IMG/VR virus record: IMGVR_UViG_3300045988_145635
From: a virus
Lineage: Duplodnaviria > Heunggongvirae > Uroviricota > Caudoviricetes
Reading direction: 5' to 3' (one strand)
DNA: 64,000 nt
The notes beneath the pieces are model-generated. The model had not been told where the DNA came from and did no database searches. It saw only the letters and a list, made by a program, of their open reading frames with translations. The translations under genes and the position numbers were made by a program. Shown here piece by piece: positions 4,191 to 45,380 of the stretch; the stretch's first letter is position 1; each line of letters begins with the position of its first letter.

Positions 4191-6506
4191 ATGATAAGCA
4201 TCGTAAAACGTAACGGCCAAACAGAGCCGTTATCCGAAGAAAAATACAACCGCGTCGTAATGTATGGCGTAGAAGGCATTCGTGGTGTAAGCGCATCCGC
4301 TGTAGCAATGGGAGCTGCGGCCAGCATTTTTGATGGGATGACCACCAGCCAGTTGCATGAGGCTTTGGTTAAATCTGCCGCTGATTTGATCTCACCAGAA
4401 GCACCAAATTACTCACAGGTGGCTGCCCGCCTGAACATTTTTAAAATCCGCAAAGATGCCTTCGGTCGTTACGACTATCCGAACTTCTACCAACACATTG
4501 TCAAGAACGTTAACAAGGGCGTTTATGACAAGGATTTGCTGACACATTATTCGTTTGAAGAGATCGAAGAACTCGGCAATTACATTAAGCCGAAACGTGA
4601 CGATCTTTTTGGCTATGCAGCTACGGTGCAGTTGCAAAGCAAATACCTCGTTCAAAACCGTGTTACTGGTGAGATTCATGAGGGACCGCAACATATCTAT
4701 ATGCTGGTAGGCATGTGTCTGTTCCAGAATTGGGAAGACGACTGCGCTGGCAAAACACGTATGGAGATGGTCAAAGGTTTCTATGACGTTACAAGTACGT
4801 TCAAACTGTCTCTGCCCACACCAATCATGGCCGGCGTCCGTACTCCAACCCGTCAGTTCTCCAGTTGTGTGCTGATTGAGTCTGGCGATAGTCTGAAAGG
4901 GATTAGTGCAGCTTCAGCCGCAATTATCGACTACGTTTCACGTCGTGCTGGAATTGGTATTGGTTTTGGCCGTATCCGTGCGCTGGGCAGCGAGATCCGC
5001 AATGGTGAAGCCACCCATACTGGAGTTATTCCATTCCTGAAGCATTTCCAGACGGCTGTTAAATCTTGTTCGCAAGGTGGTGTTCGTGGTGGCGCAGCAA
5101 CAGCGTTTTACCCGATCTGGCATCTTGAAGTTGAAAGTCTGCTGGTGGTGAAAAATAACCGTGGTATTGATGAAAACCGCGTTCGCCATCTTGATTACGG
5201 CGTCATGAGTAACCGTCTAATGTACCGTCGACTCGTCAGAAGCGAGAACATCACTCTGTTCAGCCCGCATGATGTGCCTGATATGTACGAAGCCTTCTTC
5301 ACAGACCAGGAGCTGTTTGAAAAGCTGTACCATAAATACGAAGCCGATGATTCAATTCGCAAGAAGTCAGTACCTGCCATTGAGCTGTTCTCATCTCTGA
5401 TGCAGGAACGAGCGTCCACGGGCCGAATTTATATTGCGAACGTCGATCATATTAATGAGCATGGCGCTTTCATTCCTGCTCTTGCACCTGTTCGCCAGTC
5501 AAACCTGTGTATGGAGATCACCCTACCCACCCGTCCACTGGCATTTACCGACGACCCGAACGGTGAGATCGCGCTATGCACTTTATCCGCTTTTAACCTC
5601 GGAGCCATCCGTTCACTGGAGTCTCTTAAAGAGGTGGCGTTCTATGCCGTTGCTGCACTGGATTCGTTACTGGATTATCAAGACTATCCGATGGAGGCAG
5701 CCGAAGTGCCTGCCAAAGCTCGTCGTAGCTTGGGAATTGGTGTAACCAACTTTGCTTATTACCTGGCAAAGAATGGCGTTCGTTATTCTGATACCGCTGG
5801 CAATAAACTGGTGCATGAAACGTTCGAAGCTATCCAGTATTACCTTCTTGATGCCAGCTGCCGACTTGCTGAAGCAAAAGGTGAGTGTGACTGGTTTGAG
5901 CAGACCAAATACGCAATTGGTCAGTTGCCGATCGACCATTACCGTTCTTCATTAGACGAAAGTGGCGAAACCAACTTTGAGTTAAAGATGCCGTGGGAAG
6001 AACTGCGTGAACGTATTGCAAAATACGGCCTTCGCAACTCCACACTGACGGCACAAATGCCATGCGAGACTTCCAGCCAGATCACTAATTCCACCAACGG
6101 CATCGAACCGCCTCGTGGCCCGGTGTCAGTGAAATCTTCTAAGGACGGCATCGTCAAGATGGTCGTGCCTGAGTTTGAAAAACTGAAGGAACAGTATGAA
6201 TACCTGTGGGATATGCCGGACAACCGCGGCTATCTGACAAAGGTGGCGATCATCCAGAAGTTCTTTGACCAGGCTATTTCAGCCAATACCAACTATGACC
6301 CTTCTCGCTTTGAAGGCGATAAAGTCCCAATGATGACGCTACTGTCAGATTTGCTTCTCGCCTACAAGATGGGAGTTAAAACGCTTTACTACCACAACAC
6401 CAGAGATGGGGCAGGAAAGCGTGATGACGACGAACCGCAGAATCCACTGACGCAAGCTGTAGCCGTCGAGCCAGAAGATGAGTGCGACGGAGCCTGCAAA
6501 ATCTGA
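4191..6506 (+). CDS. nrdA: ribonucleoside-diphosphate reductase alpha subunit (class Ia)
   Basis: 771-aa protein collinear with recalled E. coli NrdA, including YLVQNRVTGEI, PTPIMAGVRTPTRQFSSCVLIE and VRQSNLCMEI blocks and the C-terminal CxxC tail. Confidence 0.95.
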   Translation: MISIVKRNGQTEPLSEEKYNRVVMYGVEGIRGVSASAVAMGAAASIFDGMTTSQLHEALVKSAADLISPEAPNYSQVAARLNIFKIRKDAFGRYDYPNFYQHIVKNVNKGVYDKDLLTHYSFEEIEELGNYIKPKRDDLFGYAATVQLQSKYLVQNRVTGEIHEGPQHIYMLVGMCLFQNWEDDCAGKTRMEMVKGFYDVTSTFKLSLPTPIMAGVRTPTRQFSSCVLIESGDSLKGISAASAAIIDYVSRRAGIGIGFGRIRALGSEIRNGEATHTGVIPFLKHFQTAVKSCSQGGVRGGAATAFYPIWHLEVESLLVVKNNRGIDENRVRHLDYGVMSNRLMYRRLVRSENITLFSPHDVPDMYEAFFTDQELFEKLYHKYEADDSIRKKSVPAIELFSSLMQERASTGRIYIANVDHINEHGAFIPALAPVRQSNLCMEITLPTRPLAFTDDPNGEIALCTLSAFNLGAIRSLESLKEVAFYAVAALDSLLDYQDYPMEAAEVPAKARRSLGIGVTNFAYYLAKNGVRYSDTAGNKLVHETFEAIQYYLLDASCRLAEAKGECDWFEQTKYAIGQLPIDHYRSSLDESGETNFELKMPWEELRERIAKYGLRNSTLTAQMPCETSSQITNSTNGIEPPRGPVSVKSSKDGIVKMVVPEFEKLKEQYEYLWDMPDNRGYLTKVAIIQKFFDQAISANTNYDPSRFEGDKVPMMTLLSDLLLAYKMGVKTLYYHNTRDGAGKRDDDEPQNPLTQAVAVEPEDECDGACKI

Positions 6507-6613
6507 CATATGGTGGGGGATATCCCCACCTTCTCTTTGATTTGTAAGCCTTGTTTAAACACATAAGATAACAACTTGTTTAAACGCACCAAAAAAAGAA
6601 AAAGGAAAAACAC

Positions 6614-7756
6614 ATGTCATATTCAACGTTCCGTTTGGGTGCTAATGATGCAACCAAAGAGCCTATGTTCCTCGGACAATCTGTCAACGTGGCACGTTAC
6701 GATCAGCAAAAATACCGTGATTTTGAAAAGTTGATTGAACGTCAATTGTCTTTCTTCTGGCGGCCGGAAGAAGTTGATATTTCGAGCGATCGTATCGACT
6801 TCAACACGAAGCTGCGGGACCACGAACGTCACATTTTTCTGAGCAATCTCCGTTATCAAACGTTACTCGATTCAGTTCAGGGACGTAGCCCAAATGCAAC
6901 GCTGCTGCCGCTTATCTCTATTCCTGAACTGGAAACGTGGGTTGAAACGTGGTCTTTCTCTGAGACTATCCATAGCCGTAGCTACACCCACATTATTCGT
7001 GGCATGGTGGACGATCCGAGTATTGTTTTTGACGGTATTGTTACGGATGAAGAAATCATCAACCGAGCGATCAGTATCTCTGCTGAATATGACAGGCTTT
7101 ATGGGATGACATGCGAGCGCCAGTCGTTAGGTGAGAAGGAGTTTGAACGTCTGTACGTAAATGAATATGGCTGGGAGCCATACCCTTTGCATCGTCAGCT
7201 TTTCCGCACGTTGGTGTCCATTAATGCGCTTGAGGCGATCCGTTTCTATGTAAGTTTTGCATGTACGTTTGCCTTTGGCGAACGGAAGTTGCTTGAGGGT
7301 AACACCAAAATTATGCGCTTTATTGCCCGTGATGAAGCTCTGCATTGCGAAGGAACTGAACGCATGATCCGCTTCATGCGTACCGGTCGCGAAGGTTTAT
7401 TGTGGAAAGAGATTGCTGCTGATGAAGAAAACGTCATTTACGACACCATGAAATCAGTCGCCGAACAAGAAATGAACTGGGCAGACTATCTCTTCAAAGA
7501 CGGTTCGATGATTGGTTTAAACGCGGATATTCTGAAGACCTATGTAAAATACCGCACCAATCTGGCTATGAATCGTCTTGGCCTGAAGGCTTTATTTCCA
7601 GAAGTTACCACAGATCCGCTGGTCTGGATGAACAAGTGGTTGTTAACCGACACACTGCAAATTGCACCACAAGAGGCAGAGCAAAGCACATATCTGGTAG
7701 GTCAGATCGATTCTACCGTGGATAAGGCTTCTCTAAGCCAGTTTGCAGACCTGTAA
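6614..7756 (+). CDS. nrdB: ribonucleoside-diphosphate reductase beta subunit
   Basis: 380-aa protein with long blocks matching recalled NrdB ([38 protein letters not shown]); class A motif immediately upstream. Confidence 0.92.
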
Positions 7757-7833: not shown

Positions 7834-8703
7834 ATGAACTTTACCAAACTGACTGACCACCTGAAACTTGCCACCGATCGTCTCATTGGATTTAAGCCAG
7901 AACCATATGAGTTGCATGAAGGTCATGGTGTAGCTACTGAAAGTATTTACAAGATGGTCGATCAGTTTCATGAACTCTTCCAGCATCCGAGACGCGTTAT
8001 GCCGACACCAGAGCTGCTTCGTCTCCGTGCAAGCCTGATTCATGAAGAAGCTGTAGTGGAAGGTATTCCAGCCGCAATGAATGGGGATATTGAGCAACTG
8101 CTGGATGCAATGGCCGACTTTTTATACGTTGGTGTTGGTACGATGGTCGCCATCAAAGGTGGTATTTCTACCGGCATGACCTATTACACGCAGGAACAGA
8201 GCATTGATCGCTTTATGCAGACAATTTTTGTGCCCGGTAACACTGTTTTCGATGATATGGCAATGCCATTTCAGGAAGCTCGTGAGGCGTCATATATGCT
8301 CGAAGAGCTGGCAGATAAACTTGAGAACAAGACTGTTAAGGATTCTGAGCTGATTCAGGAACTGCGCCGTGTCATGAACAAAATCTATGTGGCGTGCATG
8401 ATGACCTATCGACTGGCTGATTTCCTCGGTATCAATGTAGTCGAGCTGGTTGGCGAAATTCATCGGTCTAACATGACAAAATTATGGCCTGCTGATGTCG
8501 AGGAACGTCGCCAGGCTGTGGCCAACTGCAAATACGACTCTTCAGACCTGGGATTTCGCCATGCTGATGGTACCGATAAGATGATCGGTTTTCGAATTTC
8601 CGATGGAAAGATTCTGAAGTCTCCAACCTATAGTGATGTCGATTTATCCTCCTTTGTTGAGCAAGCTAAAGCCTCAGCAATGTACGGAATGATCAAAAAA
8701 TAA
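7834..8703 (+). CDS. hypothetical protein, possibly MazG-like NTP pyrophosphohydrolase
   Basis: 289-aa ORF with two E/D-rich helical segments (LIHEEAVVEGIPAAMNGDIEQLLDAMADF; LIQELRRVMNKIYVA) resembling all-alpha NTP-PPases; assignment tentative. Confidence 0.4.
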   Translation: MNFTKLTDHLKLATDRLIGFKPEPYELHEGHGVATESIYKMVDQFHELFQHPRRVMPTPELLRLRASLIHEEAVVEGIPAAMNGDIEQLLDAMADFLYVGVGTMVAIKGGISTGMTYYTQEQSIDRFMQTIFVPGNTVFDDMAMPFQEAREASYMLEELADKLENKTVKDSELIQELRRVMNKIYVACMMTYRLADFLGINVVELVGEIHRSNMTKLWPADVEERRQAVANCKYDSSDLGFRHADGTDKMIGFRISDGKILKSPTYSDVDLSSFVEQAKASAMYGMIKK

Positions 8704-8846
8704 TTGTAGGTAGTTATCTATCTATGTATATTGTGTTAGCGCGTTAAATTCCTGAAACAACTATTCATTTTGGTGGCCTATGGCCACCATTTTTTTATCT
8801 ATCTGGCCTTGTTCCCTCAATAAATGTAAACTCACGTAATGAATAA

Positions 8847-9977
8847 GTGATTACTTATCTTTGTGAGGTTTTTGTGTCACTCCTTTTGAATCGTGAGCAT
8901 ACGAACGGTCAGGTAACAAACGCATCGTATGCAAAAGTTATTGAGACGGTGCTTAAAAGCGGCGTGCAGGCTGATGATCGCACAGGCACTGGTACTTTAA
9001 GCACCTGCTACGTTCCCTCTTACTACATGCTTACTGGTGGGACTGTGCCGCTTATTTCTGGAAAGGCGGTAAATCTTAAGCCACTGCTTGTCGAACTTGA
9101 GTGGTATCTGAAAGGCACGGGCAACATCCAATTTCTCAAGGATAACGGCGTTAAGATTTGGGATGCATGGGCCGATGAGAATGGCGATTTGGGGCCAGTT
9201 TACGGTAAGCAGTGGCGTCGATGGGAAGATACCCGCATCGTGAGCCATAGTGAATATCTGAGCAAGATCGCTACTTTCCGTGAACGCGGGTACAAAGTCG
9301 AGGGATACCTAGGTATCAGTGAAGATCGCGTAGTGCTGTCCCGTGAAATCGATCAGCTACAGCGTATTGTCGATACACTGCGCACGAACCCTACCGATCG
9401 TCGCATCATGCTTAACGCATGGAACGTAGGCGAGCTTGAGGATATGAAACTGCCACCTTGCCACTTTGTCTTCTCTTTGTGGAGTCGTGAGCTTGATTTT
9501 GAAACCCGTTTAACGATGGCAACTGACATTGGTCTTCAACACAGTCGCCTCGGTTACGAGTCTATCTACACCAAGATGCTATACGATCTGGAGATGGACG
9601 GCAGTGTTACTGAAGCTGAACTGGATGAACTTGGAATCCCCAAACGCATCCTCAACTCCTGCCTCGTACAGCGTAGCGTAGACACTTTTGTTGGTATGCC
9701 ATTCAATATTGCTGGCTATGGCATTCTCACTCATTTTCTCGCGAAGATTACGGGTCACATGGCCGGTGCATTTGTGCATTTTGGCTTTGACGTGCATTTG
9801 TACAACAACCACATGGAAGGTGTGTGTGAGCTAATGAAACGACAGGCTCCAGAGCATTCAGATCCGGTCGTTATTTTCCCTCATGAATGGTCAGAGTTGG
9901 ATGATTTCAAATGGGACGAGGTTTTAATTCTTGGCTATGACCCTCTATCGTGGATCAAGGTTCCAGTGGCGGTGTGA
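8847..9977 (+). CDS. thyA: thymidylate synthase homologue with internal insertion
   Basis: DRTGTGT, IWDAWADENGDLGPVYGKQWRRW, active-site LPPCH and DTFVGMPFNIAGY blocks; about 45 extra residues between the PCH and PFNIA blocks; start codon uncertain (ATG 8847 or GTG 8874). Confidence 0.85.
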   Translation: MITYLCEVFVSLLLNREHTNGQVTNASYAKVIETVLKSGVQADDRTGTGTLSTCYVPSYYMLTGGTVPLISGKAVNLKPLLVELEWYLKGTGNIQFLKDNGVKIWDAWADENGDLGPVYGKQWRRWEDTRIVSHSEYLSKIATFRERGYKVEGYLGISEDRVVLSREIDQLQRIVDTLRTNPTDRRIMLNAWNVGELEDMKLPPCHFVFSLWSRELDFETRLTMATDIGLQHSRLGYESIYTKMLYDLEMDGSVTEAELDELGIPKRILNSCLVQRSVDTFVGMPFNIAGYGILTHFLAKITGHMAGAFVHFGFDVHLYNNHMEGVCELMKRQAPEHSDPVVIFPHEWSELDDFKWDEVLILGYDPLSWIKVPVAV

Positions 9978-9978
9978 T

Positions 9979-10392
9979 ATGGCAAGAGGTATGTATGTCT
10001 TATGCGAAATTGAAGGTGTGCTGGCAAATGCCAGCCATCGTAAATCAGTATCTGACGCGGATGCAGGCCAGCTCATTGCCGGTGATGAACTCATTTTCCC
10101 CACCAGCCGTATGTTGCGTGGTTTTGCTCGCTCAGGGGCTGAAGTGGTGCTTATCAGTAGCCGCTCTGAAACTCTTGAAGCGCCAACTAAACGATGGCTG
10201 AAAGATTTTGGCGTTGATTATGACTGGCTTCATCTCGTACCGAATGGCACCAGTTATGAGAAGCATATTAAGCGCACATTAGCGGAGCATAAAGGCGATC
10301 TGCTTATCGCTGCGCTGGTGCACGATCCTCGACTCCGTGCCGCTTTAGCCGACTCTCACCATCGACCGGTCATCTATGAGGTGAGCAAATGA
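9979..10392 (+). CDS. hypothetical protein
   Basis: ATG overlaps the thyA stop (TGATATG); 137 aa; no confident motif. Confidence 0.45.
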   Translation: MARGMYVLCEIEGVLANASHRKSVSDADAGQLIAGDELIFPTSRMLRGFARSGAEVVLISSRSETLEAPTKRWLKDFGVDYDWLHLVPNGTSYEKHIKRTLAEHKGDLLIAALVHDPRLRAALADSHHRPVIYEVSK

Positions 10393-10865
10393 AGATGATC
10401 GCTGCTGTTGGCCGTAACTATGAGATCGGCATAGCGAATGAACTCCCCTGGCGTTGTTCTACCGATCTGAAGCTATTTAAGAGACTCACCAAAAACGCCA
10501 CTGTCGTTATGGGGCGTAAAACGATGGAAAGTCTCAAACGCCCTCTTCCAGAGCGTCATAACCTCGTTTTGACGCGCTCTCATGGCTTTGTACCAAATGG
10601 ATTCTACCCTGCTGGTGTGGATGATGTGTTGCGATTACCAGAGCCTGTGTGGGTGATTGGCGGGGAACAAATTTACTCGCTATTCATGCCGCATGTTGAA
10701 GAGATTTGGCTCTCCCACATCGGCGTTGATGTGCCAAACGCCGATGCATTCTTCCCGGCAAGCATGATGCGTAATTTAGGCTTTGTGCCTGTTGAAACAG
10801 CTTATACCCAACGAGCCAGCGAGGAAGAGCCTGGCTTTTCGCAGATCGTATACAGAAGGTCGTAA
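10389..10865 (+). CDS. dihydrofolate reductase
   Basis: 158 aa; IAAVGRN, LPWRC, VVMGRKT and VIGGEQIY blocks typical of DHFR; translationally coupled to flanking genes. Confidence 0.85.
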   Translation: MKMIAAVGRNYEIGIANELPWRCSTDLKLFKRLTKNATVVMGRKTMESLKRPLPERHNLVLTRSHGFVPNGFYPAGVDDVLRLPEPVWVIGGEQIYSLFMPHVEEIWLSHIGVDVPNADAFFPASMMRNLGFVPVETAYTQRASEEEPGFSQIVYRRS

Positions 10866-11509
10866 TGGATTACCGGATTGGGATCACTGGTGCTCAGGGC
10901 AGTGGGAAAACAACCCTGGCTAAATATATCGACAAACATTACGGAATCCCTTACGTGGATGCTGGTGTCGGAAGTTTGATGAGCCGCCTCGGTGTTCGAG
11001 TAGGTGATTCTATGCCTCTATATGAGCGGCTTCAGATTCAAATGGAAATAGCAAAGCATATAGAGCTACTTACGCGTGGTGTTGAAGGCTTTGTTATCGA
11101 TCGCACACCTGCTGATGTTATGGCCTACACGTTGGATTTGGTCGGCCATACAAATGAAGATCGGTGTATTGAGTTAGCCCTCGATATCGAAAAGTTTTGC
11201 CACAAAACTGCTATTTCAAACTTTAACGCCATTGCTGGCCTACGCCCGGGGGTCGCTCTCTCAGAGCGAGATTACTTGCGGTCACAACGAGCATCATTAG
11301 ACCGTCTGTATGTCGCTCGTATTGATGCGTTGATGTGCGGGGAACTGACAAAAATTCACCTGCATCCGCAAAGGGGAGATCTGCAAACCTTCGTCGTTTC
11401 CAACCGGTATCGCACAGTTGAAGCAAGAGCCAGATCAGTGATGAGAATGCTAGATAACGCTGTAGAAAAGATAGAAAACCGGTTCTGTGGCCGAGTGACC
11501 GTTCATTAG
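10865..11509 (+). CDS. P-loop NTPase, putative (deoxy)nucleotide kinase
   Basis: N-terminal Walker A GAQGSGKTT within the first 20 residues; 214 aa; sits in the nucleotide-metabolism cluster. Confidence 0.5.
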   Translation: MDYRIGITGAQGSGKTTLAKYIDKHYGIPYVDAGVGSLMSRLGVRVGDSMPLYERLQIQMEIAKHIELLTRGVEGFVIDRTPADVMAYTLDLVGHTNEDRCIELALDIEKFCHKTAISNFNAIAGLRPGVALSERDYLRSQRASLDRLYVARIDALMCGELTKIHLHPQRGDLQTFVVSNRYRTVEARARSVMRMLDNAVEKIENRFCGRVTVH

Positions 11510-13708: not shown

Positions 13709-14302
13709 ATGATTGCAGCCGAAAAAATCAAACAGCGAAAGCGCGACAACTCTCTTCGTGACCTCTGGAGAACACCTGACTGGCTGTTTTCTGCCATTCA
13801 ACGTTATCTTGGAGTGACATTTGATGTTGACGTTGCCTGCAACAAGGACAATGCAAAGCTGCCTAATTTCATAGGCGTTGAGCGTGATGCTTTGAAATCT
13901 GAATGGGGACAGCCAGGTACAATTGCCTTCCTCAATCCACCCTACTCCAAAATCTCCCCCTGGATTGATGCGGCTATACGTGAGCAGGCTCGCGGAGTTA
14001 CAACAGTGATGCTAATTCCTCAATCCCTAGATACAAAGTGGTATGAGCGTGCAACAGAGTGTGCGAATGAGACGATTATTCTGTCTGGTGGCCGCGTAGC
14101 GTTTGTCGAGCCTGACGTCAATCTGGGTCAGGTAGAAGTAAACATCAACCCAGGTGGCAGTATGCTCGTTGTTTTTCGAGGATTCTGTCAGGACGCTGGG
14201 CACTCTATAAGCAAGATCCCTTTGGACGTCATGAAAAGTCTGGGAGGGTATGATCCTGCGAATGTGATCAGGAAAAAAAGACCATCAAAGAAGGCTGCTT
14301 AG
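13709..14302 (+). CDS. DNA N6-adenine methyltransferase (phage Dam-like)
   Basis: FLNPPYS catalytic motif in a ~190-aa protein typical of small phage adenine methyltransferases. Confidence 0.75.
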   Translation: MIAAEKIKQRKRDNSLRDLWRTPDWLFSAIQRYLGVTFDVDVACNKDNAKLPNFIGVERDALKSEWGQPGTIAFLNPPYSKISPWIDAAIREQARGVTTVMLIPQSLDTKWYERATECANETIILSGGRVAFVEPDVNLGQVEVNINPGGSMLVVFRGFCQDAGHSISKIPLDVMKSLGGYDPANVIRKKRPSKKAA

Positions 14303-19187: not shown

Positions 19188-20873
19188 ATGAATACAGCTC
19201 TTTCCATCATCGACGATGCCAACTCAAACACTGCTATCGATTATCGTCAGGAAATGAACGTCATCCACGAAATTGTGGCCGAGTGCGAGAAGGAGATCGC
19301 CTTCATGTATCAGGTTCACGACTTCGTTTATGGAGACGAACGCCACAACATGATTAATCGCCTGCTGCAACTGAACCACCGACCAGATGAAGAACGCTCA
19401 CGTTTGAATCGAGCTTGGCTGGATAAAGTCGATCTGGAATGGGTGAAACAGAATATTTGGGCCGAGTACTGGAGGAAGGTCACGGATATGACTAACGTTC
19501 TGCTGATCATGCCAGCTTCCCGTCGCGACGAGTGGCGTGAGCAGTTTATCGAGGGTAAGCAGGAAGTCATCAAAACTGACAGAACCGGCTATCAGATGAA
19601 GGTAAAAGAGTTCGTTGGTGTACCGGAGTTCAAAGCAGAAACGGTCATACCCACGATGCTTAATTTGCTGAATGACAGGCACAAATATCTCTCTGAGCGC
19701 GTGTATGGCTTGTTTAAGGCGCTGAGTCCTGCGCACAAGACAAATAAGACAAACGGTTTCAGCGAACGTCTGATAATCGCTGACTGCATTTCTGATTTCT
19801 GGCGGGACAGCGTTAGTGTGAACTATCGCAAAGAGGACTATATCGACGATCTGCGTGTCTTGCTTCATTTCTTCGCGCACAAAGAATTTATTACCATCAA
19901 CCGCACTGCTGAGGTGCTATCAGCTGCGTATCGGGCAAACGACTGCCAGACCGGTGACTGGATGAACGTCGATGGAAATCTGATGCGCGTGAAGATGTTC
20001 AAGAACGGCAACGTTCACTTTGAAATACATCCTGACGTGGCCTGGAAGTTGAATGAGGTGCTGGCTTACAGTATGCCTGCTGCAATCCCCGCGCCATGTC
20101 GCACCGCGCCAAAAACACGGGCACCAAAGCAGTTCGGGTTAATCCAGAAGACGATCTCCGTGCCGGTTCGCACTGCGCTTCGTGACGGGCGATTGAGCAA
20201 AGACAAAGGCGTATGGTACTTCTCTGATTCAGCTCTCCAGAAGTCGCAGGTGGAAGAGCTTGAGCGCACACTGAGCTTCATTGGCGGCGTGCAGGAGAAA
20301 AAGCACTGGCAGTTCCCGTATGACATCGTCCATACGCTAAATACGATTGTGGCTACCGGTTTAATACCGGATACAAAATCACACCAGTTCTACCCTACCC
20401 CACGCTTGATTGCTGAGTACGTTGCCAGAGCCACTGAATTGAAGCCTGGTGAGAAGCTGCTGGAGCCTCAAGCCGGACGTGGGGATCTTCTGGCCTATAT
20501 TAACGCCGATCTGGAAGATGTTACCTGCATAGAAATCGCACCTCTCTTCGCTGATATCCTGCGTGGAAAAGGGTATACGAACACGATTTGCTGCGACTTC
20601 ATAAAGTGGTCTGAGGACAACGTAGGTTATCAGTTCGACAAAATCGTTATGAACCCGCCGTATTCGCTTGGTCGTCATAGAGAGCACACGCTGGCTGCGC
20701 TGGGGCATCTGAAAGTCGGCGGGCGTCTTGTAGCAGTATTGCCGGGCACTGCGCCAATACTGGACTGGATGACGATGGATAATTACGTTTATGCCAGAGG
20801 GAAGTCGTTTACCAACGAGTTTGAAGACACAGGGATCACAGTCAGCGTATACGTTTTCAAACGCGTTAAATGA
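19188..20873 (+). CDS. DNA N6-adenine methyltransferase with large N-terminal domain of unknown function
   Basis: C-terminal region has motif I LLEPQAGRGDL and motif IV VMNPPYS (gamma-type order); N-terminal ~400 aa unassigned. Confidence 0.65.
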   Translation: MNTALSIIDDANSNTAIDYRQEMNVIHEIVAECEKEIAFMYQVHDFVYGDERHNMINRLLQLNHRPDEERSRLNRAWLDKVDLEWVKQNIWAEYWRKVTDMTNVLLIMPASRRDEWREQFIEGKQEVIKTDRTGYQMKVKEFVGVPEFKAETVIPTMLNLLNDRHKYLSERVYGLFKALSPAHKTNKTNGFSERLIIADCISDFWRDSVSVNYRKEDYIDDLRVLLHFFAHKEFITINRTAEVLSAAYRANDCQTGDWMNVDGNLMRVKMFKNGNVHFEIHPDVAWKLNEVLAYSMPAAIPAPCRTAPKTRAPKQFGLIQKTISVPVRTALRDGRLSKDKGVWYFSDSALQKSQVEELERTLSFIGGVQEKKHWQFPYDIVHTLNTIVATGLIPDTKSHQFYPTPRLIAEYVARATELKPGEKLLEPQAGRGDLLAYINADLEDVTCIEIAPLFADILRGKGYTNTICCDFIKWSEDNVGYQFDKIVMNPPYSLGRHREHTLAALGHLKVGGRLVAVLPGTAPILDWMTMDNYVYARGKSFTNEFEDTGITVSVYVFKRVK

Positions 20874-27907: not shown

Positions 27908-28064
27908 CCCGTCTCCTTTATTTTAATTTGCGCAATTGTCGCCTTGTAGTGTACTCCAGCTACGACATTTAATCATTTATGAGAAATGCTGTTATCACAT
28001 GGCAGACATAAGGCCATTTTGTTACTATCAAGCCCCTTTTCACTACAAAGAAGTAATGCCTACT

Positions 28065-30098
28065 ATGACCCAAGTCGCGAAGAAAATTCTGGTGACGTGC
28101 GCGCTGCCGTACGCTAACGGCTCAATCCACCTCGGCCATATGCTGGAGCACATCCAGGCTGATGTCTGGGTTCGTTACCAGCGAATGCGCGGCCACGAGG
28201 TTAATTTCATCTGTGCCGACGATGCCCACGGTACGCCGATCATGCTGAAAGCGCAGCAGCTTGGTATCACACCGGAGCAGATGATTGGCGAAATGAGTCA
28301 GGAACACCAGACTGATTTCGCAGGCTTTAACATCAGCTATGACAACTATCACTCGACGCACAGCGAAGAGAACCGTCAGTTGTCTGAGCTTATCTATACT
28401 CGCCTGAAAGAGAACGGTTTTATTAAAAACCGCACTATCTCTCAGTTGTACGACCCGGAAAAAGGCATGTTCCTGCCGGATCGTTTTGTAAAAGGCACCT
28501 GCCCGAAATGTAAAGCGCCAGATCAATACGGCGATAACTGTGAAGTCTGCGGCGCAACATATAGCCCGACTGAATTGATCGAGCCGAAATCGGTGGTTTC
28601 TGGCGCTACCCCGGTAATGCGTGATTCCGAACACTTCTTCTTTGATCTGCCTTCTTTCAGCGAAATGTTGCAGGCATGGACCCGCAGCGGCGCGTTGCAG
28701 GAGCAGGTGGCGAACAAAATGCAGGAATGGTTTGAATCCGGCCTGCAACAGTGGGATATCTCCCGCGATGCGCCTTACTTCGGTTTTGAAATTCCGGACG
28801 CGCCGGGCAAATATTTCTACGTCTGGCTGGACGCGCCGATTGGCTACATGGGTTCCTTCAAGAATCTGTGCGACAAGCGCGGCGATACCACCAGCTTCGA
28901 TGAATACTGGAAGAAAGACTCCACCGCCGAGCTGTACCACTTCATCGGTAAAGATATTGTTTACTTCCACAGCCTGTTCTGGCCTGCCATGCTGGAAGGC
29001 AGCAACTTCCGCAAGCCGACCAACCTGTTTGTTCACGGCTATGTGACAGTGAACGGCGCGAAGATGTCCAAGTCTCGCGGTACCTTTATTAAAGCCAGCA
29101 CCTGGCTGAATCATTTTGACGCCGACAGCCTGCGTTACTACTACACTGCGAAACTCTCTTCGCGCATTGATGATATCGATCTCAACCTGGAGGATTTCGT
29201 TCAGCGCGTGAATGCCGATATCGTGAACAAAGTGGTTAACCTGGCCTCCCGTAATGCAGGCTTTATCAACAAGCGTTTTGACGGCGTGCTGGCAAGCGAA
29301 CTGGCTGACCCGCAACTGTACAAAACCTTTACTGATGCCGCTGAAGTGATTGGCGAAGCATGGGAAAGCCGCGAATTTGGTAAAGCTATCCGTGAAATCA
29401 TGGCATTGGCTGACCTGGCTAACCGCTATGTCGATGAACAGGCTCCGTGGGTGGTGGCGAAGCAGGAAGGGCGCGATGCCGATCTGCAGGCGATTTGCTC
29501 TATGGGCATTAACCTGTTCCGCGTGCTGATGACGTACCTGAAACCGGTACTGCCGAAACTGACTGAACGTGCAGAAGCATTCCTGAATACAGAACTGACC
29601 TGGGATGGTATCCAGCAACCGCTGCTGGGCCATAAAGTGAATCCGTTCAAGGCACTGTATAACCGTATCGATATGAAACAGGTGGAAGCACTGGTGGAAG
29701 CATCCAAAGAAGAAGTGAAAGCCACAGCCGCACCGGTAACTGGCCCACTGGCTGACGACCCGATTCAGGAAACCATCACCTTTGACGACTTCGCCAAAGT
29801 TGACCTGCGTGTGGCGCTGATTGAAAACGCGGAGTTTGTTGAAGGCTCTGACAAACTGCTGCGTCTGACACTGGATCTCGGTGGGGAAAAGCGTAATGTC
29901 TTCTCAGGCATCCGTTCTGCTTATCCCGACCCACAGGCATTGATTGGTCGTCACACCATTATGGTGGCTAACCTGGCTCCGCGTAAAATGCGCTTCGGTA
30001 TCTCCGAAGGCATGGTGATGGCTGCTGGCCCCGGCGGGAAAGATATCTTCCTGTTAAGCCCGGATGCTGGTGCTAAACCTGGCCACCAGGTTAAGTAA
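28065..30098 (+). CDS. metG: methionine--tRNA ligase (host-type)
   Basis: 677-aa protein from [25 protein letters not shown] to the C-terminal tRNA-binding domain; essentially identical to recalled E. coli MetG with a handful of substitutions; HIGH and KMSKS motifs present. Confidence 0.97.
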
Positions 30099-42445: not shown

Positions 42446-42466
42446 ATAAGTAAGTGATTACTTAGT
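42446..42466. promoter_or_regulatory. class B palindrome (AATAAGTAAGTGATTACTTAG) in a divergent promoter region
   Basis: Sits in the 65-bp gap between the divergently transcribed helicase and ParB-like genes. Confidence 0.45.
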
Positions 42467-42482
42467 GGATTGTAGCAATAAA

Positions 42483-43163
42483 ATGGATGTAAAAATCACG
42501 ATTTTGCAGGTTGATGTTGCCAACCTTCGCCCGAATACCTGGAACACCAATTCGGTTGGTGCGCAGAATTTTGAAAAACTGAAAGGTTCTATCGAAAAAT
42601 TGGGCTTTTTTAAGCCAATTTTGGCTCGTGAACTTGAAGATGGATTTTTTGAAATCCTCGGCGGCGAACATCGCTGGCGTGCCGCTATTGAGCAAGGAAT
42701 TTCAACGGTTCCAGTGCTTTCTGTGGGCAAAATTAGCGATGTCGTAGCTAAACAGATGTCACTGGTGGACAACGAGCGATACGGTGAAGACGACCAAATC
42801 GCATTGCAACGCTTCATTGAAGAAATTCAGTCAGAACTTGACTATCAACTGTCTGAAATCGCCCCGTATGACGACGAAATCTCGATGGTTTTAGCAAAAG
42901 AGGCGGCAATCGACCTTGAAGCACTGGAGGCGTTGTCTCGTGGTAGTGATGGGCCTGTCGATACCGACAAACGAGAGAAAACCGAACGTGTGGGGGCGGA
43001 ACATCAGACCATGCGCTTCAAAGTAACTTTCGATGCGTCAGATCGTGTTGCAGAAACCATAAAAAACATCATCAAAGAGCAGGCTATTAACACCGGTAAT
43101 GAAATGGAGAACGCTGGTGAGGCTCTGGTGTGGCTGGTCGACTACTACAAGGAGCGTATGTAA
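42483..43163 (+). CDS. ParB-like nuclease domain protein
   Basis: ILGGEHRWRAA motif of the ParB/sulfiredoxin fold; ORF-track start 42465 is GTG, ATG 42483 preferred. Confidence 0.65.
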   Translation: MDVKITILQVDVANLRPNTWNTNSVGAQNFEKLKGSIEKLGFFKPILARELEDGFFEILGGEHRWRAAIEQGISTVPVLSVGKISDVVAKQMSLVDNERYGEDDQIALQRFIEEIQSELDYQLSEIAPYDDEISMVLAKEAAIDLEALEALSRGSDGPVDTDKREKTERVGAEHQTMRFKVTFDASDRVAETIKNIIKEQAINTGNEMENAGEALVWLVDYYKERM

Positions 43164-43831
43164 TGACCAAAAAGTTTGAAATCGTATATCGCGACCCGGC
43201 AGATCTTATTCCCTATGAGATGAATGCCAAAAAGCATGATGAACAGCAGATCCGAGATCTGGCCGCAGCCATTAAAAAGCGCGGATTTGACCAGCCAATT
43301 ACGGTCGATAAGAACGACGTAATTATTACTGGCCACGGCCGCCGTGAGGCTGCAATTTTTGCTGGACTTGAGCGCGTGCCGGTTATTGTTCGCGATGATC
43401 TGAGTGATGACGAGGTACGTGCAAAGCGCCTTGAAGATAACCGACTTGCCAGCATTGATTACGATGCAATTAAGCTACAGAAAGAGCTTGAGTCGCTTGT
43501 TCTGGACGATATCGAGGTTTTCGGCTTCGAAGAGCGTGAGTTGAATGTTCTCGTTGGCAGTATGACAGAAGAAATGGACACCGACTCGCTAGTTATCGAT
43601 CTTGGCGAAGAAACTAAACGACAGAAGGATGAACACACCGAGATCAGTCGTGAAGTTGCAGCGGAAGAAGTACGTGTTGTCGACGTATTGGGCTTTAAAA
43701 CGCTCCCTGCTGGCTCTGCCATTGTTGTTGGTGATTTGCTTGCCCATATGGAAGAAATGACGGGAGAAAGCGGGGTAGACGCATTTGTGGCATATGCGGA
43801 GAAGATCTCTTCCGGGGAGATGGCTGCATGA
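43163..43831 (+). CDS. ParB-like nuclease domain protein (second copy)
   Basis: ITGHGRREAA motif; start set to the ATG overlapping the upstream stop (TAATG). Confidence 0.65.
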   Translation: MTKKFEIVYRDPADLIPYEMNAKKHDEQQIRDLAAAIKKRGFDQPITVDKNDVIITGHGRREAAIFAGLERVPVIVRDDLSDDEVRAKRLEDNRLASIDYDAIKLQKELESLVLDDIEVFGFEERELNVLVGSMTEEMDTDSLVIDLGEETKRQKDEHTEISREVAAEEVRVVDVLGFKTLPAGSAIVVGDLLAHMEEMTGESGVDAFVAYAEKISSGEMAA

Positions 43832-44493
43832 GCAAATACATCATCAACGTATCGTTTCAGACACGCGTAAATAAAACCACGCGCACGTTGGAAATCGCTG
43901 AGTCGTTCGGGCTTGGCCTGGACGAAAAAGAGTGGACGCTTTACGACAATCTGGAGCTGGAAGTGAAGCAGGGCGATGTGGTGTACATCACCGGCCAATC
44001 CGGTTCCGGCAAATCCGTTGTGCTGCGCGAGTTGCAACGACAGATGAAGGATGAAGGGCTGTCTGTAGCCTCCATCGATGATTTTACCTTCGATAATGAG
44101 GTTAACGTCATCGATCAGTTGGGCAAAACGACCAGCGATGCGCTTGGGTTGTTATCTATGGCTGGTCTGAACGATGCATATCTGTTTGTTCGCAAGCCTT
44201 CTGAAATGTCAGACGGCCAGAAATATCGTCTCAAGATTGCCAAACTGATTGAGTCAGGCGCTAAAGTGTGGGCTGCTGACGAGTTCGGCGCTGTTCTCGA
44301 CCGTGTAACCGCTCAGGTTGTGGCGTCTAACCTCCAGCGTGCCGCTCGAAAGGTTGGTGCGACGGTAATGGTGGCGACGACTCACGAAGACCTGAAGAAC
44401 GCGCTGCGCCCGGATATGCAGATCACCAAGCACTACAAAGAACGCGTGAAGGTGGAATATCACAATGGTAGTCATGATGAGGTTCATTTATGA
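43828..44493 (+). CDS. ABC-type ATPase-like protein (nucleotide-binding domain only)
   Basis: Walker A GQSGSGKS, signature-like SDGQKYRL, Walker B VWAADEFG, H-loop ATTHE; no transmembrane domain. Confidence 0.6.
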   Translation: MSKYIINVSFQTRVNKTTRTLEIAESFGLGLDEKEWTLYDNLELEVKQGDVVYITGQSGSGKSVVLRELQRQMKDEGLSVASIDDFTFDNEVNVIDQLGKTTSDALGLLSMAGLNDAYLFVRKPSEMSDGQKYRLKIAKLIESGAKVWAADEFGAVLDRVTAQVVASNLQRAARKVGATVMVATTHEDLKNALRPDMQITKHYKERVKVEYHNGSHDEVHL

Positions 44494-45380
44494 CGGACAT
44501 CATCATTAAACGCTACCGCCCTGAAGAGTTTCCGCGTCATCTGGATTTTCTGGAGCGAATGACTGTCACAAAGGGAACTGTAGAGGACTGGCACGCTCTT
44601 AAGTCGCTTCACTACAAAACAGACGGCAAACCTTTCGCGCCAACTTACTATCGCTGCGAACTTGATGACCGTCTGGTGGGCGTCGTGGTTATGGCTTACC
44701 CGAAACTACTGTTGGCACCTCGCCACCGCATGTTTCCTAAGTTGAAACCAACCACTAATACCACCGTGGCTAACCAGTACTGGGGTCGGTACGTGAATAA
44801 CAACTTTGCGGTGATCAGTCGCTCAGTTGTGGATACTCAGTATCGTGGCGTAGGCGTCTCTTATCGAATGATTAACCTGGTTAGCAGGATGCATGACCGG
44901 CCAATCATTGAGATCCAGTCCTCGATGAGCAAATACAATCCCTTCGCCATGAAAGCAGGGTTTAAGTTCATCCGCCCTGAGCGACCGAAGAGCTATGAAA
45001 GTGCACTGCGTGTATTCCAGCGCCATTTCCGTTCCGACCCGGGTGATAACGAGGCGATCGTCAAAGAGTTGTTCGCAATGAGCGAGTCTCGTCGTCGCCG
45101 TGCACTGCGTGATCTGGTGGCGGACTACCACAAGAACAGTTCCCTGGCAAAAGCTGGGCGGAATCGTGGCACGACGATTCAGGACATTGCCGACAGTCTG
45201 GTGGACGAGGCCAGCATTGTGAAGCTGCTCAAGGACATTCACAACCTGAGCTTTACGTCTCCGTTGTATGGTGTGTACCGAAACCCTGACTTTGGTCGTC
45301 GACTGCCTGACACGCTGCCACTGCTGGCATTCGACAAACAACCTTTGGATAAACCGTTAGAAATTGCTTTACCGGCATAA
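44490..45380 (+). CDS. hypothetical protein (possible GNAT-like fold)
   Basis: 296-aa ORF; QYRGVGVSYRMI segment resembles GNAT motif A; tentative. Confidence 0.4.
   Translation: MTDIIIKRYRPEEFPRHLDFLERMTVTKGTVEDWHALKSLHYKTDGKPFAPTYYRCELDDRLVGVVVMAYPKLLLAPRHRMFPKLKPTTNTTVANQYWGRYVNNNFAVISRSVVDTQYRGVGVSYRMINLVSRMHDRPIIEIQSSMSKYNPFAMKAGFKFIRPERPKSYESALRVFQRHFRSDPGDNEAIVKELFAMSESRRRRALRDLVADYHKNSSLAKAGRNRGTTIQDIADSLVDEASIVKLLKDIHNLSFTSPLYGVYRNPDFGRRLPDTLPLLAFDKQPLDKPLEIALPA

Follow-up and report, generated by a model that had tools for sequence, protein, structure and literature searches.

The gene at nucleotides 8874–9977 on the plus strand of the window, the whole 64,000-nucleotide stretch of DNA analysed here, is an ordinary and already correctly annotated thymidylate synthase (TS) gene of an SSU5-like Escherichia coli phage-plasmid of the Cyrano type. 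Judging by its sequence, the product is a canonical TS, and it belongs to a subfamily of phage enzymes that carry inserts. We infer that it has TS activity and that the inserts leave this chemistry unaltered. The reading in which we place high confidence is that of a genuine folate-dependent TS with ordinary chemistry, encoded within the nucleotide-supply block of a phage-plasmid, whose two inserts (ins1 and ins2) are old, maintained features of a clade.

Host element and gene model

Escherichia phage Cyrano, an SSU5-like phage-plasmid, is 99.3% identical to the window at the nucleotide level. The same thyA gene is also present in SSU5 and in Klebsiella phage-plasmids, and was found in 204 of 5426 complete E. 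coli genomes. It occupies 208 places in these genomes, 206 of them plasmid-borne (the eight listed measure 107–115 kb), and the product name given by PGAP in the E. coli plasmids is thymidylate synthase.

The open reading frame had at first been drawn from 8847 to 9977; its start is corrected here to 8874, by comparison with relatives. The resulting gene has a GTG start, encodes 367 amino acids and, with its stop codon, spans the same 1104 nt as in Cyrano and in the PGAP annotation. A ribosome-binding site, GAGG, can be read on the plus strand at 8865–8868, 5 nt 5' of the GTG, and is kept in Cyrano, SSU5 and pJN2-26. The codon at 8847 is GTA in SSU5 and pJN2-26, and the longer frame from GTG 8847 was rejected on this ground; GTG 8874 is therefore taken as the start. 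Its equivalent in both SSU5 and pJN2-26 is TTG. Further upstream, between thyA and a gene for a MazG-like protein, a terminator-like GC hairpin (TGGTGGCC/GGCCACCA) followed by a T-run can be read at 8771–8796 on the plus strand.

Family membership, fold and catalytic residues

That the frame encodes a ThyA homologue, as the first-pass annotation had it, is borne out by the match to Pfam PF00303 (261.8 bits against a threshold of 24.3, E=7.6e-78). The product also exceeds the cutoff of the NCBIfam equivalog TIGR03284 (217.2 against 108.35 bits) and matches PHROG_160 with E=5e-94. The narrower PRK01827 sub-models do not reach their threshold (259 versus 327), a shortfall that is to be expected of an insert-bearing protein. 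Solved bacterial TS chains match in three collinear blocks (E=1e-62 to 5e-59), and identity to E. coli ThyA is 44% over aligned columns. The AF2 model (pLDDT 93.4, pTM 0.92) has the same fold as E. coli and other bacterial ThyA enzymes (EC 2.1.1.45; PDB 2TSC, 1TYS); in Foldseek, its core superimposes on E. coli TS with a TM score of 0.94, normalised to the target (E=1e-29).

Compared with E. coli ThyA, every residue that takes part in catalysis or binds dUMP or folate is either the same or conservatively substituted, as is the C-terminal tail. Residues kept are, in E. coli numbering, R21, K48, E58, I79, W80, W83, Y94, R126, R127, L143, C146, H147, Q165, R166, S167, D169, G173, F176, N177, H207, Y209 and the C-terminal VAV. 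The two motifs on which the initial assignment had rested, LPPCH and PFNIA with an extra segment between them, are both in place on the plus strand. LPPCH (residues 193–197, nt 9450–9464) contains the catalytic Cys196 and His197, equivalent to E. coli C146 and H147. Together with the dUMP phosphate-binding set R36, R176, R177, R267 and S268 (E. coli R21, R126', R127', R166 and S167), these two residues are invariant in an alignment of 30 sequences. The set for folate binding and hydride transfer consists of E74, W96, W99, Y110, D270, F277, H308, Y310 and the PVAV C-terminus, corresponding to E. coli E58, W80, W83, Y94, D169, F176, H207, Y209 and the C-terminal tail, which folds shut over the cofactor. 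The tail is encoded at 9963–9974 on the plus strand, aligns with E. coli P261-V262-A263-I264 and is absent from hydroxymethylases. In TS, the residues of the folate pocket and the C-terminal tail have a role in excluding water, according to mutant studies.

PFNIA (residues 276–280, nt 9699–9713) carries Asn278, the determinant of uracil specificity. It is the counterpart of E. coli N177 and is invariant in the same alignment of the insert-bearing family. The specificity for uracil that had been proposed from this residue is supported. At this position Asn goes with uracil specificity, and a change from Asn to Asp confers a preference for cytosine (PMC8670742).

Gene neighbourhood

The gene lies in a conserved block, all on the plus strand, in the order nrdA, nrdB, NTP pyrophosphohydrolase, thyA, a small HAD-like protein, a DfrA51-family dihydrofolate reductase (DHFR) and a P-loop protein that may be a kinase. 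The upstream part consists of the class Ia ribonucleotide reductase (RNR) genes nrdA (4191–6506) and nrdB (6614–7756), which together span 4191–7756 and are assigned by PF00268 for nrdB and by the annotation of Cyrano, SSU5 and pJN2-26. The MazG/PRA-PH-like nucleoside triphosphate pyrophosphohydrolase that follows (7834–8703, 289 aa; PF01503, 36 bits; PHROG_671, E=1e-47) is a possible supplier of dUMP. Directly after thyA comes a 137-aa protein resembling HAD/PNKP phosphatases (9979–10392). Its PF25109 score of 22.8 bits is under the cutoff; it belongs to PHROG_5387 (E=3.5e-90), a family of unknown function, and its position is conserved in SSU5 and pJN2-26.

DHFR is encoded at 10389–10865, 412 bases 3' of thyA with this one small gene between, an arrangement kept in SSU5 and pJN2-26. 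It is assigned by PF00186 (119 bits) and, to the DfrA51 family, by the NCBIfam model trim_DfrA51 (338 bits against a cutoff of 322); the SSU5 orthologue, which defines DfrA51, has been shown experimentally to be functional (PMC12217456). TS needs DHFR and a hydroxymethylase does not (PMC4528723), and since true dTMP synthesis requires DHFR, the adjoining gene gives the TS reading indirect support. TS and DHFR also co-occur across jumbo phages (PMC7824862). The last gene of the block encodes a 214-aa P-loop protein (10865–11509) with an AAA_28 match and weak matches to (d)CMP kinase and to a PHROG of thymidylate kinases, which suggest a candidate dNMP or dTMP kinase. Phages with 5-hydroxymethyluracil (hmU) use similar types of NTP pyrophosphohydrolase, HAD-like phosphatase and P-loop kinase to reshape their pyrimidine pools (PMC8989533), so the gene context alone does not fully discriminate.

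Relation to pyrimidine hydroxymethylases

The first-pass annotation had taken the extra segment as a possible sign of a hydroxymethylase (HMase) or a modified-base pathway. SPO1 gp29, T4 gp42, Kuttervirus Det7 gp108, PhiW-14 gp230 and the TS-like protein of the M6-like phage Max were therefore aligned with the window's protein, profiles were built, and the protein was scored against them; four of these (SPO1, Det7, PhiW-14 and Max, from lineages with hmU or hypermodified thymidine) make up the dUMP-HMase profile. The alternative to be weighed is a dUMP hydroxymethylase akin to SPO1 gp29 that supplies a pathway to 5-hmdU or hypermodified thymidine, with the inserts opening the active site to water. 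The HMases, T4 gp42 included, share with the window's protein the superfamily and the core of catalytic Cys, Arg166, Ser167, Asp169, His207 and Tyr209. The TS fold and Asn177 are common to dUMP hydroxymethylases as well, and the pyrophosphohydrolase, phosphatase-like and kinase-like neighbours recall those of hmU phages.

The scores and residues nevertheless separate the two groups clearly. Our protein scores 279 bits on the TS profile and 33 on the dUMP-HMase profile, whereas the HMases reach 37–58 bits on the TS profile and 442–574 on their own; its identity is 20% to SPO1 gp29 and 23% to T4 gp42. The HMases differ at positions 80, 83, 143, 147 and 176 and, except in PhiW-14, at 165, where Q165 is kept in the window's protein. 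Their signature, derived here from four sequences and not a published rule, comprises L143D, H147N, residues other than Trp at 80 and 83 (unalignable in Det7), F176A/I and loss of the TS C-terminal tail. None of these substitutions occurs in the protein studied here, which has L143, H147, W80, W83, F176 and the VAV tail, all of the TS type. The HMases also lack both inserts, and the extra length of SPO1 gp29 is a C-terminal extension. The co-located DHFR would be superfluous to an HMase, and 204 sequenced E. coli genomes carry the element as a replicating plasmid. Genes for hypermodification are likewise missing from the parts inspected: no 5-HMUDK, aGPT-Pplase or glycosyltransferase is present in the Cyrano annotation at 1–30000 and 63603–108379, the stretches that match the window, or among the open reading frames scanned in the window. 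A hydroxymethylase identity was rejected on the profile scores, the retained TS residues and the missing HMase substitutions, and we regard the dUMP-hydroxymethylase alternative as exceedingly unlikely.

Activity on dCMP, as a methylase or hydroxymethylase yielding DNA with 5-methyl- or 5-hydroxymethylcytosine, has a precedent in ThyA-fold enzymes of T4 and other phages. It would call for a different residue at position 177, where Asp confers the cytosine preference (PMC8670742); T4 gp42, a dCMP hydroxymethylase with a TS-profile score of 46 bits, has Asp there (D179), in contrast to the Asn278 found throughout the insert-bearing family. Neither a glucosyltransferase nor a carbamoyltransferase partner was found in the Cyrano annotation of the window part, and the probability of this alternative is practically negligible.

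The window had also been credited with two adenine methyltransferases. One of them could be confirmed, as a Dam-type N6-adenine methyltransferase (PF05869), and the second candidate examined belongs to the DUF4942 proteins; for neither is a connection with pyrimidine C5 chemistry known. A literature search found no report that SSU5-like phages or SPN3US modify their DNA. As far as the sequence can tell, nothing points to a modified-base pathway, and the protein is best read as a TS.

Position and structure of the inserts

About 100 residues of the protein have no counterpart in E. coli ThyA; they are located at the N-terminus, in the 101–109 loop and at the tip of the 153–160 hairpin. Aligned with hmmalign to a profile of 264-aa TS proteins, they resolve into a 15-aa N-terminal extension and two inserts of 34 and 51 aa. 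The larger one, ins2, had been put at about 45 residues and taken for the only one, ins1 having been missed.

The N-terminal extension (8874–8918, plus strand) shows the lowest conservation in the protein (amino acid identity 0.56–0.69), and its first ten residues have a pLDDT of 74. The N-terminal region had been described as remodelled, which is true of these 15 or so residues; the remainder is an ordinary TS N-terminus in which R21 and E58 are kept. Ins1 (residues 119–156, net +34 aa; 9228–9341, plus strand) lies in a surface loop equivalent to E. coli 101–109, before helix H, and is predicted in the AF2 model to form a strand, two short helices and then a β-hairpin. Ins2 (residues 207–257, net +51 aa; 9492–9644, plus strand) is predicted to form three helices, and sits at the tip of the β-hairpin equivalent to E. 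coli 153–160, after the catalytic Cys. It had been placed near the active site. In linear sequence this is so, but in the AF2 model it leaves from the tip of the hairpin of strands 197–206 and 258–270, with about 10 residues of strand separating it from Cys196 and Arg267. Its conserved anchors read SRELxxxxR and LDxxGIPxRxL, also described as L-[ST]-x-E-E-R and L-D-x-x-G-[VI]-P-x-R, and recur in 95 clusters.

Surface inserts specific to a lineage are tolerated in the TS of L. casei, of eukaryotes and of T4 (td), with the reaction unchanged. The small-domain insert of L. casei and human TS falls at E. coli positions 66–93; in L. casei-type enzymes it measures about 50 aa, whereas the protein described here has no extra residues there (d_small = 0). 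The eukaryotic 8-aa insert lies in what we take to be the same loop as ins1, and the alignment with human TS is consistent with this. We know of no characterised TS with an insert at the ins2 hairpin. Searches of PDB sequences and structures found no solved TS with sequence at either site, and neither insert peptide matched a PDB sequence. Against Pfam (E up to 10), ins2 gave no match and ins1 only Sedlin_N (E=0.098), whose 13.2 bits are far under the 23.1-bit cut-off.

Conservation and distribution

Insert lengths are identical, and the inserts in frame, across elements of Escherichia, Salmonella and Klebsiella. Among the available SSU5-like sequences dS is saturated, so that regional dN/dS is mostly undefined and dN alone can be compared: it is 0.035–0.30 for ins1 and 0.14–0.20 for ins2, which evolves at 2–3 times the rate of the core. 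For the core, dN/dS is about 0.06–0.08. By these comparisons, both inserts are under purifying selection.

The search for relatives gave roughly 1750 strong TS matches (E below 1e-30). In a survey of the 150 best-scoring clusters at 50% identity, ins2 of at least 15 aa was present in 97, ins1 in 78 and both in 55. The first-pass annotation had allowed that the insertion might be common to ordinary phage ThyA proteins, and it is: besides these clusters, cultured SSU5-like and jumbo phages have it. All SSU5-like elements, the SPN3US-like and Erwinia jumbo phages and many metagenomic clusters have both inserts. The insert-bearing clade thus takes in SSU5-like phage-plasmids, jumbo phages of the SPN3US, Erwinia and 201phi2-1 types and many uncultured large phages. 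The enzymes of the SSU5-like and jumbo phages share both insertion sites with that of the window, keep the ins2 anchors and are annotated simply as thymidylate synthase. The jumbo-phage enzymes are 38–40% identical to it, with shorter inserts (SPN3US, 338 aa) or additional ones (201phi2-1, 457 aa); SPN3US TS matches over the full length, inserts included, at 39% identity. Models of phage TS reach a TMq of 0.83–0.86 in Foldseek, against 0.68 for insert-less TS. The two inserts are ancient, folded and selectively maintained features of a large phage TS clade.

The surroundings of the gene in SPN3US were also compared. Two scanned frames downstream of its thyA (at +13 nt and +0.8 kb, on either side of a 252-nt frame) gave no Pfam DHFR match, and no homology was detected between the MazG-like proteins of the window and of SPN3US.

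These data bear on two further explanations. One regards the extra segments as recent mobile insertions, such as intein or homing-element remnants, or as assembly or annotation artefacts. Phage TS genes are known intron hosts (T4 td), and the ins1 site holds very large inserts in some metagenomic relatives. Conserved insert length, purifying selection and a homology still recognisable in relatives at 35–40% identity led us to reject a recent mobile insertion or intein; in addition, the inserts are predicted with high confidence to fold together with the enzyme and resemble no Pfam family in sequence. This explanation has next to no probability. The other takes the protein for a TS homologue that is moonlighting or impaired in catalysis, its real function (for instance regulation, RNA binding or anti-defence) residing in the inserts. 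E. coli already has a thyA of its own, and conserved, folded inserts of unknown function with Arg, Asp and Pro anchors would fit such a role. A non-enzyme, however, would not maintain all catalytic residues invariant across divergent members; the low dN/dS of the core and the place of the gene within a coherent RNR–TS–DHFR block likewise speak against it, and we consider it very unlikely.

Proposed role and significance

As a genuine TS, ThyA would convert dUMP and CH2-H4folate to dTMP and H2folate, and DHFR would regenerate the tetrahydrofolate that TS oxidises; the block as a whole would raise the dTTP supply during lytic replication of the element. What the inserts contribute is more speculative. 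Our best guess is that they provide an accessory surface that adds stability or lets the enzyme dock to other proteins of the phage's nucleotide metabolism, by analogy with T4 TS, for whose surface inserts a similar role has reportedly been proposed. A literature search found neither a description of insert-bearing phage TS nor an enzymatic or genetic test of any such enzyme. A bolder view, possible although we would not favour it, is that the inserts, and especially the three-helix ins2, form a phage-specific accessory module with a function of its own. Such a module might serve as the dock by which TS joins DHFR, RNR or further phage enzymes in a dNTP-synthesising complex, or it might add dimer contacts or protect the phage TS from a host factor. 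A large clade of phage TS, including SSU5-like phage-plasmids and jumbo phages, would then share an undescribed functional add-on.

Taken as an ordinary TS gene, thyA is a housekeeping-type gene of nucleotide metabolism in a common E. coli phage-plasmid, and its practical significance is small. With the suspicion of modified bases set aside on sequence grounds, the element needs no priority for nucleoside analysis. The adjacent dfrA51 is a recently recognised determinant of trimethoprim resistance, and its closeness to the TS gene may matter for effects of these elements on antifolate susceptibility. Beyond the single element, there is a large, mostly phage-borne TS subfamily with two conserved, folded inserts that are represented in none of the solved structures and of which we found no description in the literature; it offers a starting point for work on phage dNTP-synthesis complexes or TS engineering.

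The gene and its genetic element

The window is part of an SSU5-like phage-plasmid. DNA identity is 99.3% with Escherichia phage Cyrano, 98.4% with further phage-plasmids of E. coli and 77.6% with Salmonella phage SSU5. Of 5426 complete E. coli genomes, 204 carry the same 1104-nt thyA gene; 206 of its 208 occurrences are plasmid-borne (the eight plasmids listed measure 107–115 kb) and PGAP labels it 'thymidylate synthase'. The element is therefore SSU5-like, and the gene is already known and publicly annotated, correctly so.

In the six-frame list, the open reading frame (ORF) spans 8847–9977 and encodes a protein that hits Pfam Thymidylat_synt with E=7.6e-78. The true start is almost certainly GTG 8874, because a GAGG motif (8865–8868, +) lies 5 nt 5' of it, the arrangement of GAGG followed by GTG or TTG is kept in Cyrano, SSU5 and the related phage-plasmid pJN2-26, and the resulting 367-residue product is the gene model of both the Cyrano annotation and PGAP. 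The longest-ORF start, GTG 8847, is ruled out by the GAGG motif, by the conserved downstream start and by the matching codon in SSU5 and pJN2-26, which is GTA. A non-ATG start (GTG or TTG) is used for thyA across the SSU5 group.

Catalytic residues and comparison with hydroxymethylases

All checked positions of E. coli thymidylate synthase (TS) are in the TS state, namely R21, G23, K48, E58, I79, W80, W83, Y94, R126, R127, L143, C146, H147, Q165, R166, S167, D169, G173, F176, N177, H207 and Y209; the C-terminal V-A-(I/V) is also retained. The sole substitutions, H51N, L172V and I264V, are conservative. The checked catalytic positions are invariant across a 30-sequence alignment with relatives down to ~36% identity, and the protein passes the NCBIfam TS equivalog TIGR03284 (217 bits; cutoff 108).

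The first-pass annotation took an insertion in this protein as a possible sign of a hydroxymethylase (HMase) or a modified-base pathway. The HMases compared, experimentally known or implied by lineage, were SPO1 gp29 (dUMP HMase), T4 gp42 (dCMP HMase) and the gp29 homologues of Det7 (a Kuttervirus), PhiW-14 and Max (an M6-like phage). Identity is 44% to E. coli ThyA, but 20–23% to SPO1 gp29 and T4 gp42. None of the HMases has either of the two extra segments described below (ins1 and ins2); the additional length of gp29 is a C-terminal extension. PF00303 scores are 262 bits for the window's protein, 77 for gp29 and 60 for gp42. A canonical-TS profile gives it 279 bits and the five HMases 37–58, whereas a dUMP-HMase profile gives it 33 bits and its own members 442–574. 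Where alignable, the HMases depart from TS at positions 80, 83, 143 (Asp), 147 (Asn or Thr) and 176, and, PhiW-14 excepted, at 165; all lack the TS C-terminal tail, and T4 gp42 further has Asp179. At every one of these positions the window's protein has the TS state, including the tail and Asn rather than Asp179.

Gene context points in the same direction. TS needs dihydrofolate reductase (DHFR) because it oxidises its cofactor to dihydrofolate, whereas an HMase does not (PMC4528723), and a DHFR gene lies nearby. Of the partners expected of a hydroxymethyluracil (hmU) or hypermodification pathway (5-HMUDK, aGPT-Pplase, a glycosyltransferase or similar), none was found in the Cyrano annotation of the window's part or in Pfam scans. 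Neighbouring genes for an NTP pyrophosphohydrolase and for phosphatase-like and kinase-like proteins do not discriminate, since dTTP-making and hmU-making phages alike have them. Profile scores, residue states and the DHFR together make an HMase very unlikely, and the inserts are not evidence for new chemistry. Two adenine methyltransferases had also been noted. They are probably a Dam-family N6-adenine methyltransferase (13709–14302, +; PF05869, 132 bits), which is confirmed, and a 561-residue DUF4942 protein (19188–20873, +), which is a candidate methyltransferase. Of possible DNA-modification genes, the annotation and the scans showed these two alone.

Layout and predicted structure of the inserts

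In a phmmer search of PDB sequences, solved TS chains, that of E. coli among them, match the protein in three collinear blocks and leave two gaps unaligned. Measured against a profile of forty-six 264-residue TS proteins, ins1 (residues 119–156) adds 34 residues in the loop matching E. coli 101–109, and ins2 (residues 207–257) adds 51 at the tip of the hairpin matching E. coli 153–160; the classical small-domain site has no extra residues. The insert of ~45 residues reported earlier between LPPCH and PFNIA is thus real, if slightly longer, but ins1 had been missed, and the supposedly remodelled N-terminus is merely a 15-residue extension. In eukaryotic TS, too, the loop that holds ins1 is a hot spot for indels.

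The AlphaFold2 model, computed from the 30-sequence alignment, is confident along the whole protein (pLDDT 93.4, pTM 0.92, no segment below 50). In it, ins1 is predicted to form a strand, two short helices and a β-hairpin, and ins2 three helices that protrude from an intact hairpin stem; the tip from which ins2 departs is ~10 strand residues away from Cys196 and Arg267. The top Foldseek match in the PDB is E. coli TS (E=1e-29), with a TM-score of 0.94 normalised to the target and 0.68 to the query; the TS core is therefore complete, and ~100 residues lack a counterpart in any solved structure. The core is left untouched by the inserts. The insert peptides gave no matches to PDB sequences and nothing meaningful in Pfam (ins1 to Sedlin_N, E=0.098, is chance-level).

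Distribution and conservation of the inserts

The insertion is not unusual: it is common among ordinary phage ThyA proteins, which the first-pass annotation itself had named as an argument against its suspicion. Both inserts are present in all SSU5-like elements (from Escherichia, Salmonella, Klebsiella, Enterobacter, Raoultella, Morganella, Providencia and Xenorhabdus; contigs mostly ~97–121 kb). The next cultured relatives are jumbo phages (SPN3US, the SPFM phages, CR5 and Erwinia phages Machina, Huxley and Wellington), 38–40% identical over 95–98% of the length; the alignment with SPN3US TS is continuous across both inserts. Among BFVD viral models, phage TS proteins, including that of Pseudomonas phage 201phi2-1, reach query-normalised TM-scores of 0.83–0.86, against 0.68 for the best insert-less TS, which indicates shared extra structure. 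Two distant relatives with inserts come from metagenomic contigs of 104 kb and 356 kb that, from their dense small ORFs, T4-type RNA ligase, ribonucleotide reductase (RNR), thymidylate kinase and NAMPT, look like large phages.

Searched exhaustively with HMMER, 1.84 billion cluster representatives yielded 10,706 TS-family hits. Among the best 150, at least 15 extra residues occur at the ins2 site in 97, at the ins1 site in 78 and at both in 55; this ranking favours insert-bearing proteins, and the counts are lower bounds on diversity, not frequencies. Each insert occurs without the other in many of these clusters, so the two need not be one unit. The ins2 anchors, N-terminal L-[ST]-x-E-E-R (Arg in 75 of 95 clusters) and C-terminal L-D-x-x-G-[VI]-P-x-R-x-L (Pro in 81 of 95), are conserved around a variable middle; ins2 is demonstrably homologous across the 95 clusters. 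Within the SSU5 group insert lengths are identical, and dN is 0.035–0.30 for the inserts, with dS saturated, and 0.056–0.12 for the core. The inserts are thus under purifying selection, though for ins2 it is 2–3 times more relaxed.

The metagenomic relatives have three indel hot spots, with maximum extra lengths of +95 residues (small domain), ~+135 (ins1 loop) and +80 (ins2 hairpin). Several proteins of 430–590 residues probably carry ~275 extra residues at the ins1 loop or upstream, and some relatives may contain inserted whole domains or inteins.

Gene neighbourhood

Downstream of thyA come a small HAD-like ORF and, at a distance of 412 bases from thyA, DHFR, an order kept in SSU5 and pJN2-26. 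The DHFR (10389–10865, +) passes the NCBIfam DfrA51 cutoff (338 bits; cutoff 322). TS and DHFR also co-occur across jumbo phages (PMC7824862). The intervening ORF (9979–10392, +; 137 residues, HAD/PNKP-phosphatase-like, PHROG_5387 of unknown function) shares 4 nt with the start of DHFR and is likewise kept in SSU5 and pJN2-26. Cyrano labels it 'polynucleotide kinase'; only a phosphatase-like domain is detectable, below the Pfam threshold. Next comes a 214-residue P-loop protein (10865–11509, +) with weak matches to (d)CMP kinase and a thymidylate-kinase PHROG, which may be the dNMP kinase of the gene block; it is labelled variously 'ABC transporter ATP-binding protein' or 'AAA family ATPase'.

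Upstream of thyA, a 289-residue MazG/PRA-PH-like NTP pyrophosphohydrolase (7834–8703, +) matches the Pfam domain only in its N-terminal ~65 residues; no similarity was detected between it and the MazG-like protein encoded close to TS in SPN3US. Between this gene and thyA, a GC-rich hairpin (TGGTGGCC...GGCCACCA) with seven consecutive T after it (8771–8796) looks like an intrinsic terminator or attenuator inside an otherwise co-directional block.

Elsewhere, a 720-residue ORF (27936–30098, +) is the counterpart of a Cyrano gene annotated as methionyl-tRNA synthetase, which phage-plasmids do not usually carry. Four co-directional genes (42465–45380, +), encoding two ParB_N-domain proteins, an ABC-type ATPase and a 296-residue protein without Pfam matches, adjoin an oppositely oriented gene for a UvsW-like helicase and could form a partition or DNA-processing module.

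Proposed role and significance

Together, nrdA, nrdB, the MazG-like pyrophosphohydrolase, thyA, the HAD-like ORF, DHFR and the P-loop protein most likely form a self-contained deoxynucleotide supply module. RNR provides dNDPs, and the pyrophosphohydrolase could plausibly convert dUTP or dCTP to the monophosphate. Given complete residue conservation, ThyA would methylate dUMP by the standard Michael addition of Cys196 and hydride transfer. DHFR, whose activity has been demonstrated for the SSU5 orthologue, regenerates H4folate, and the P-loop protein may, on weak evidence, phosphorylate dTMP. The preferred, if speculative, reading of the inserts is an accessory surface that would either stabilise the enzyme or dock it to its partners.

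The protein belongs to a large, mostly phage-borne TS subfamily with two conserved structured inserts, absent from every solved TS and apparently undescribed in this role as a subfamily trait; this is a modest structural curiosity. DfrA51, defined from phage-plasmid SSU5, confers trimethoprim resistance, raising the E. coli MIC, and binds the drug in purified form (PMC12217456). With its DfrA51-family DHFR, the window therefore carries a recognised trimethoprim-resistance determinant.
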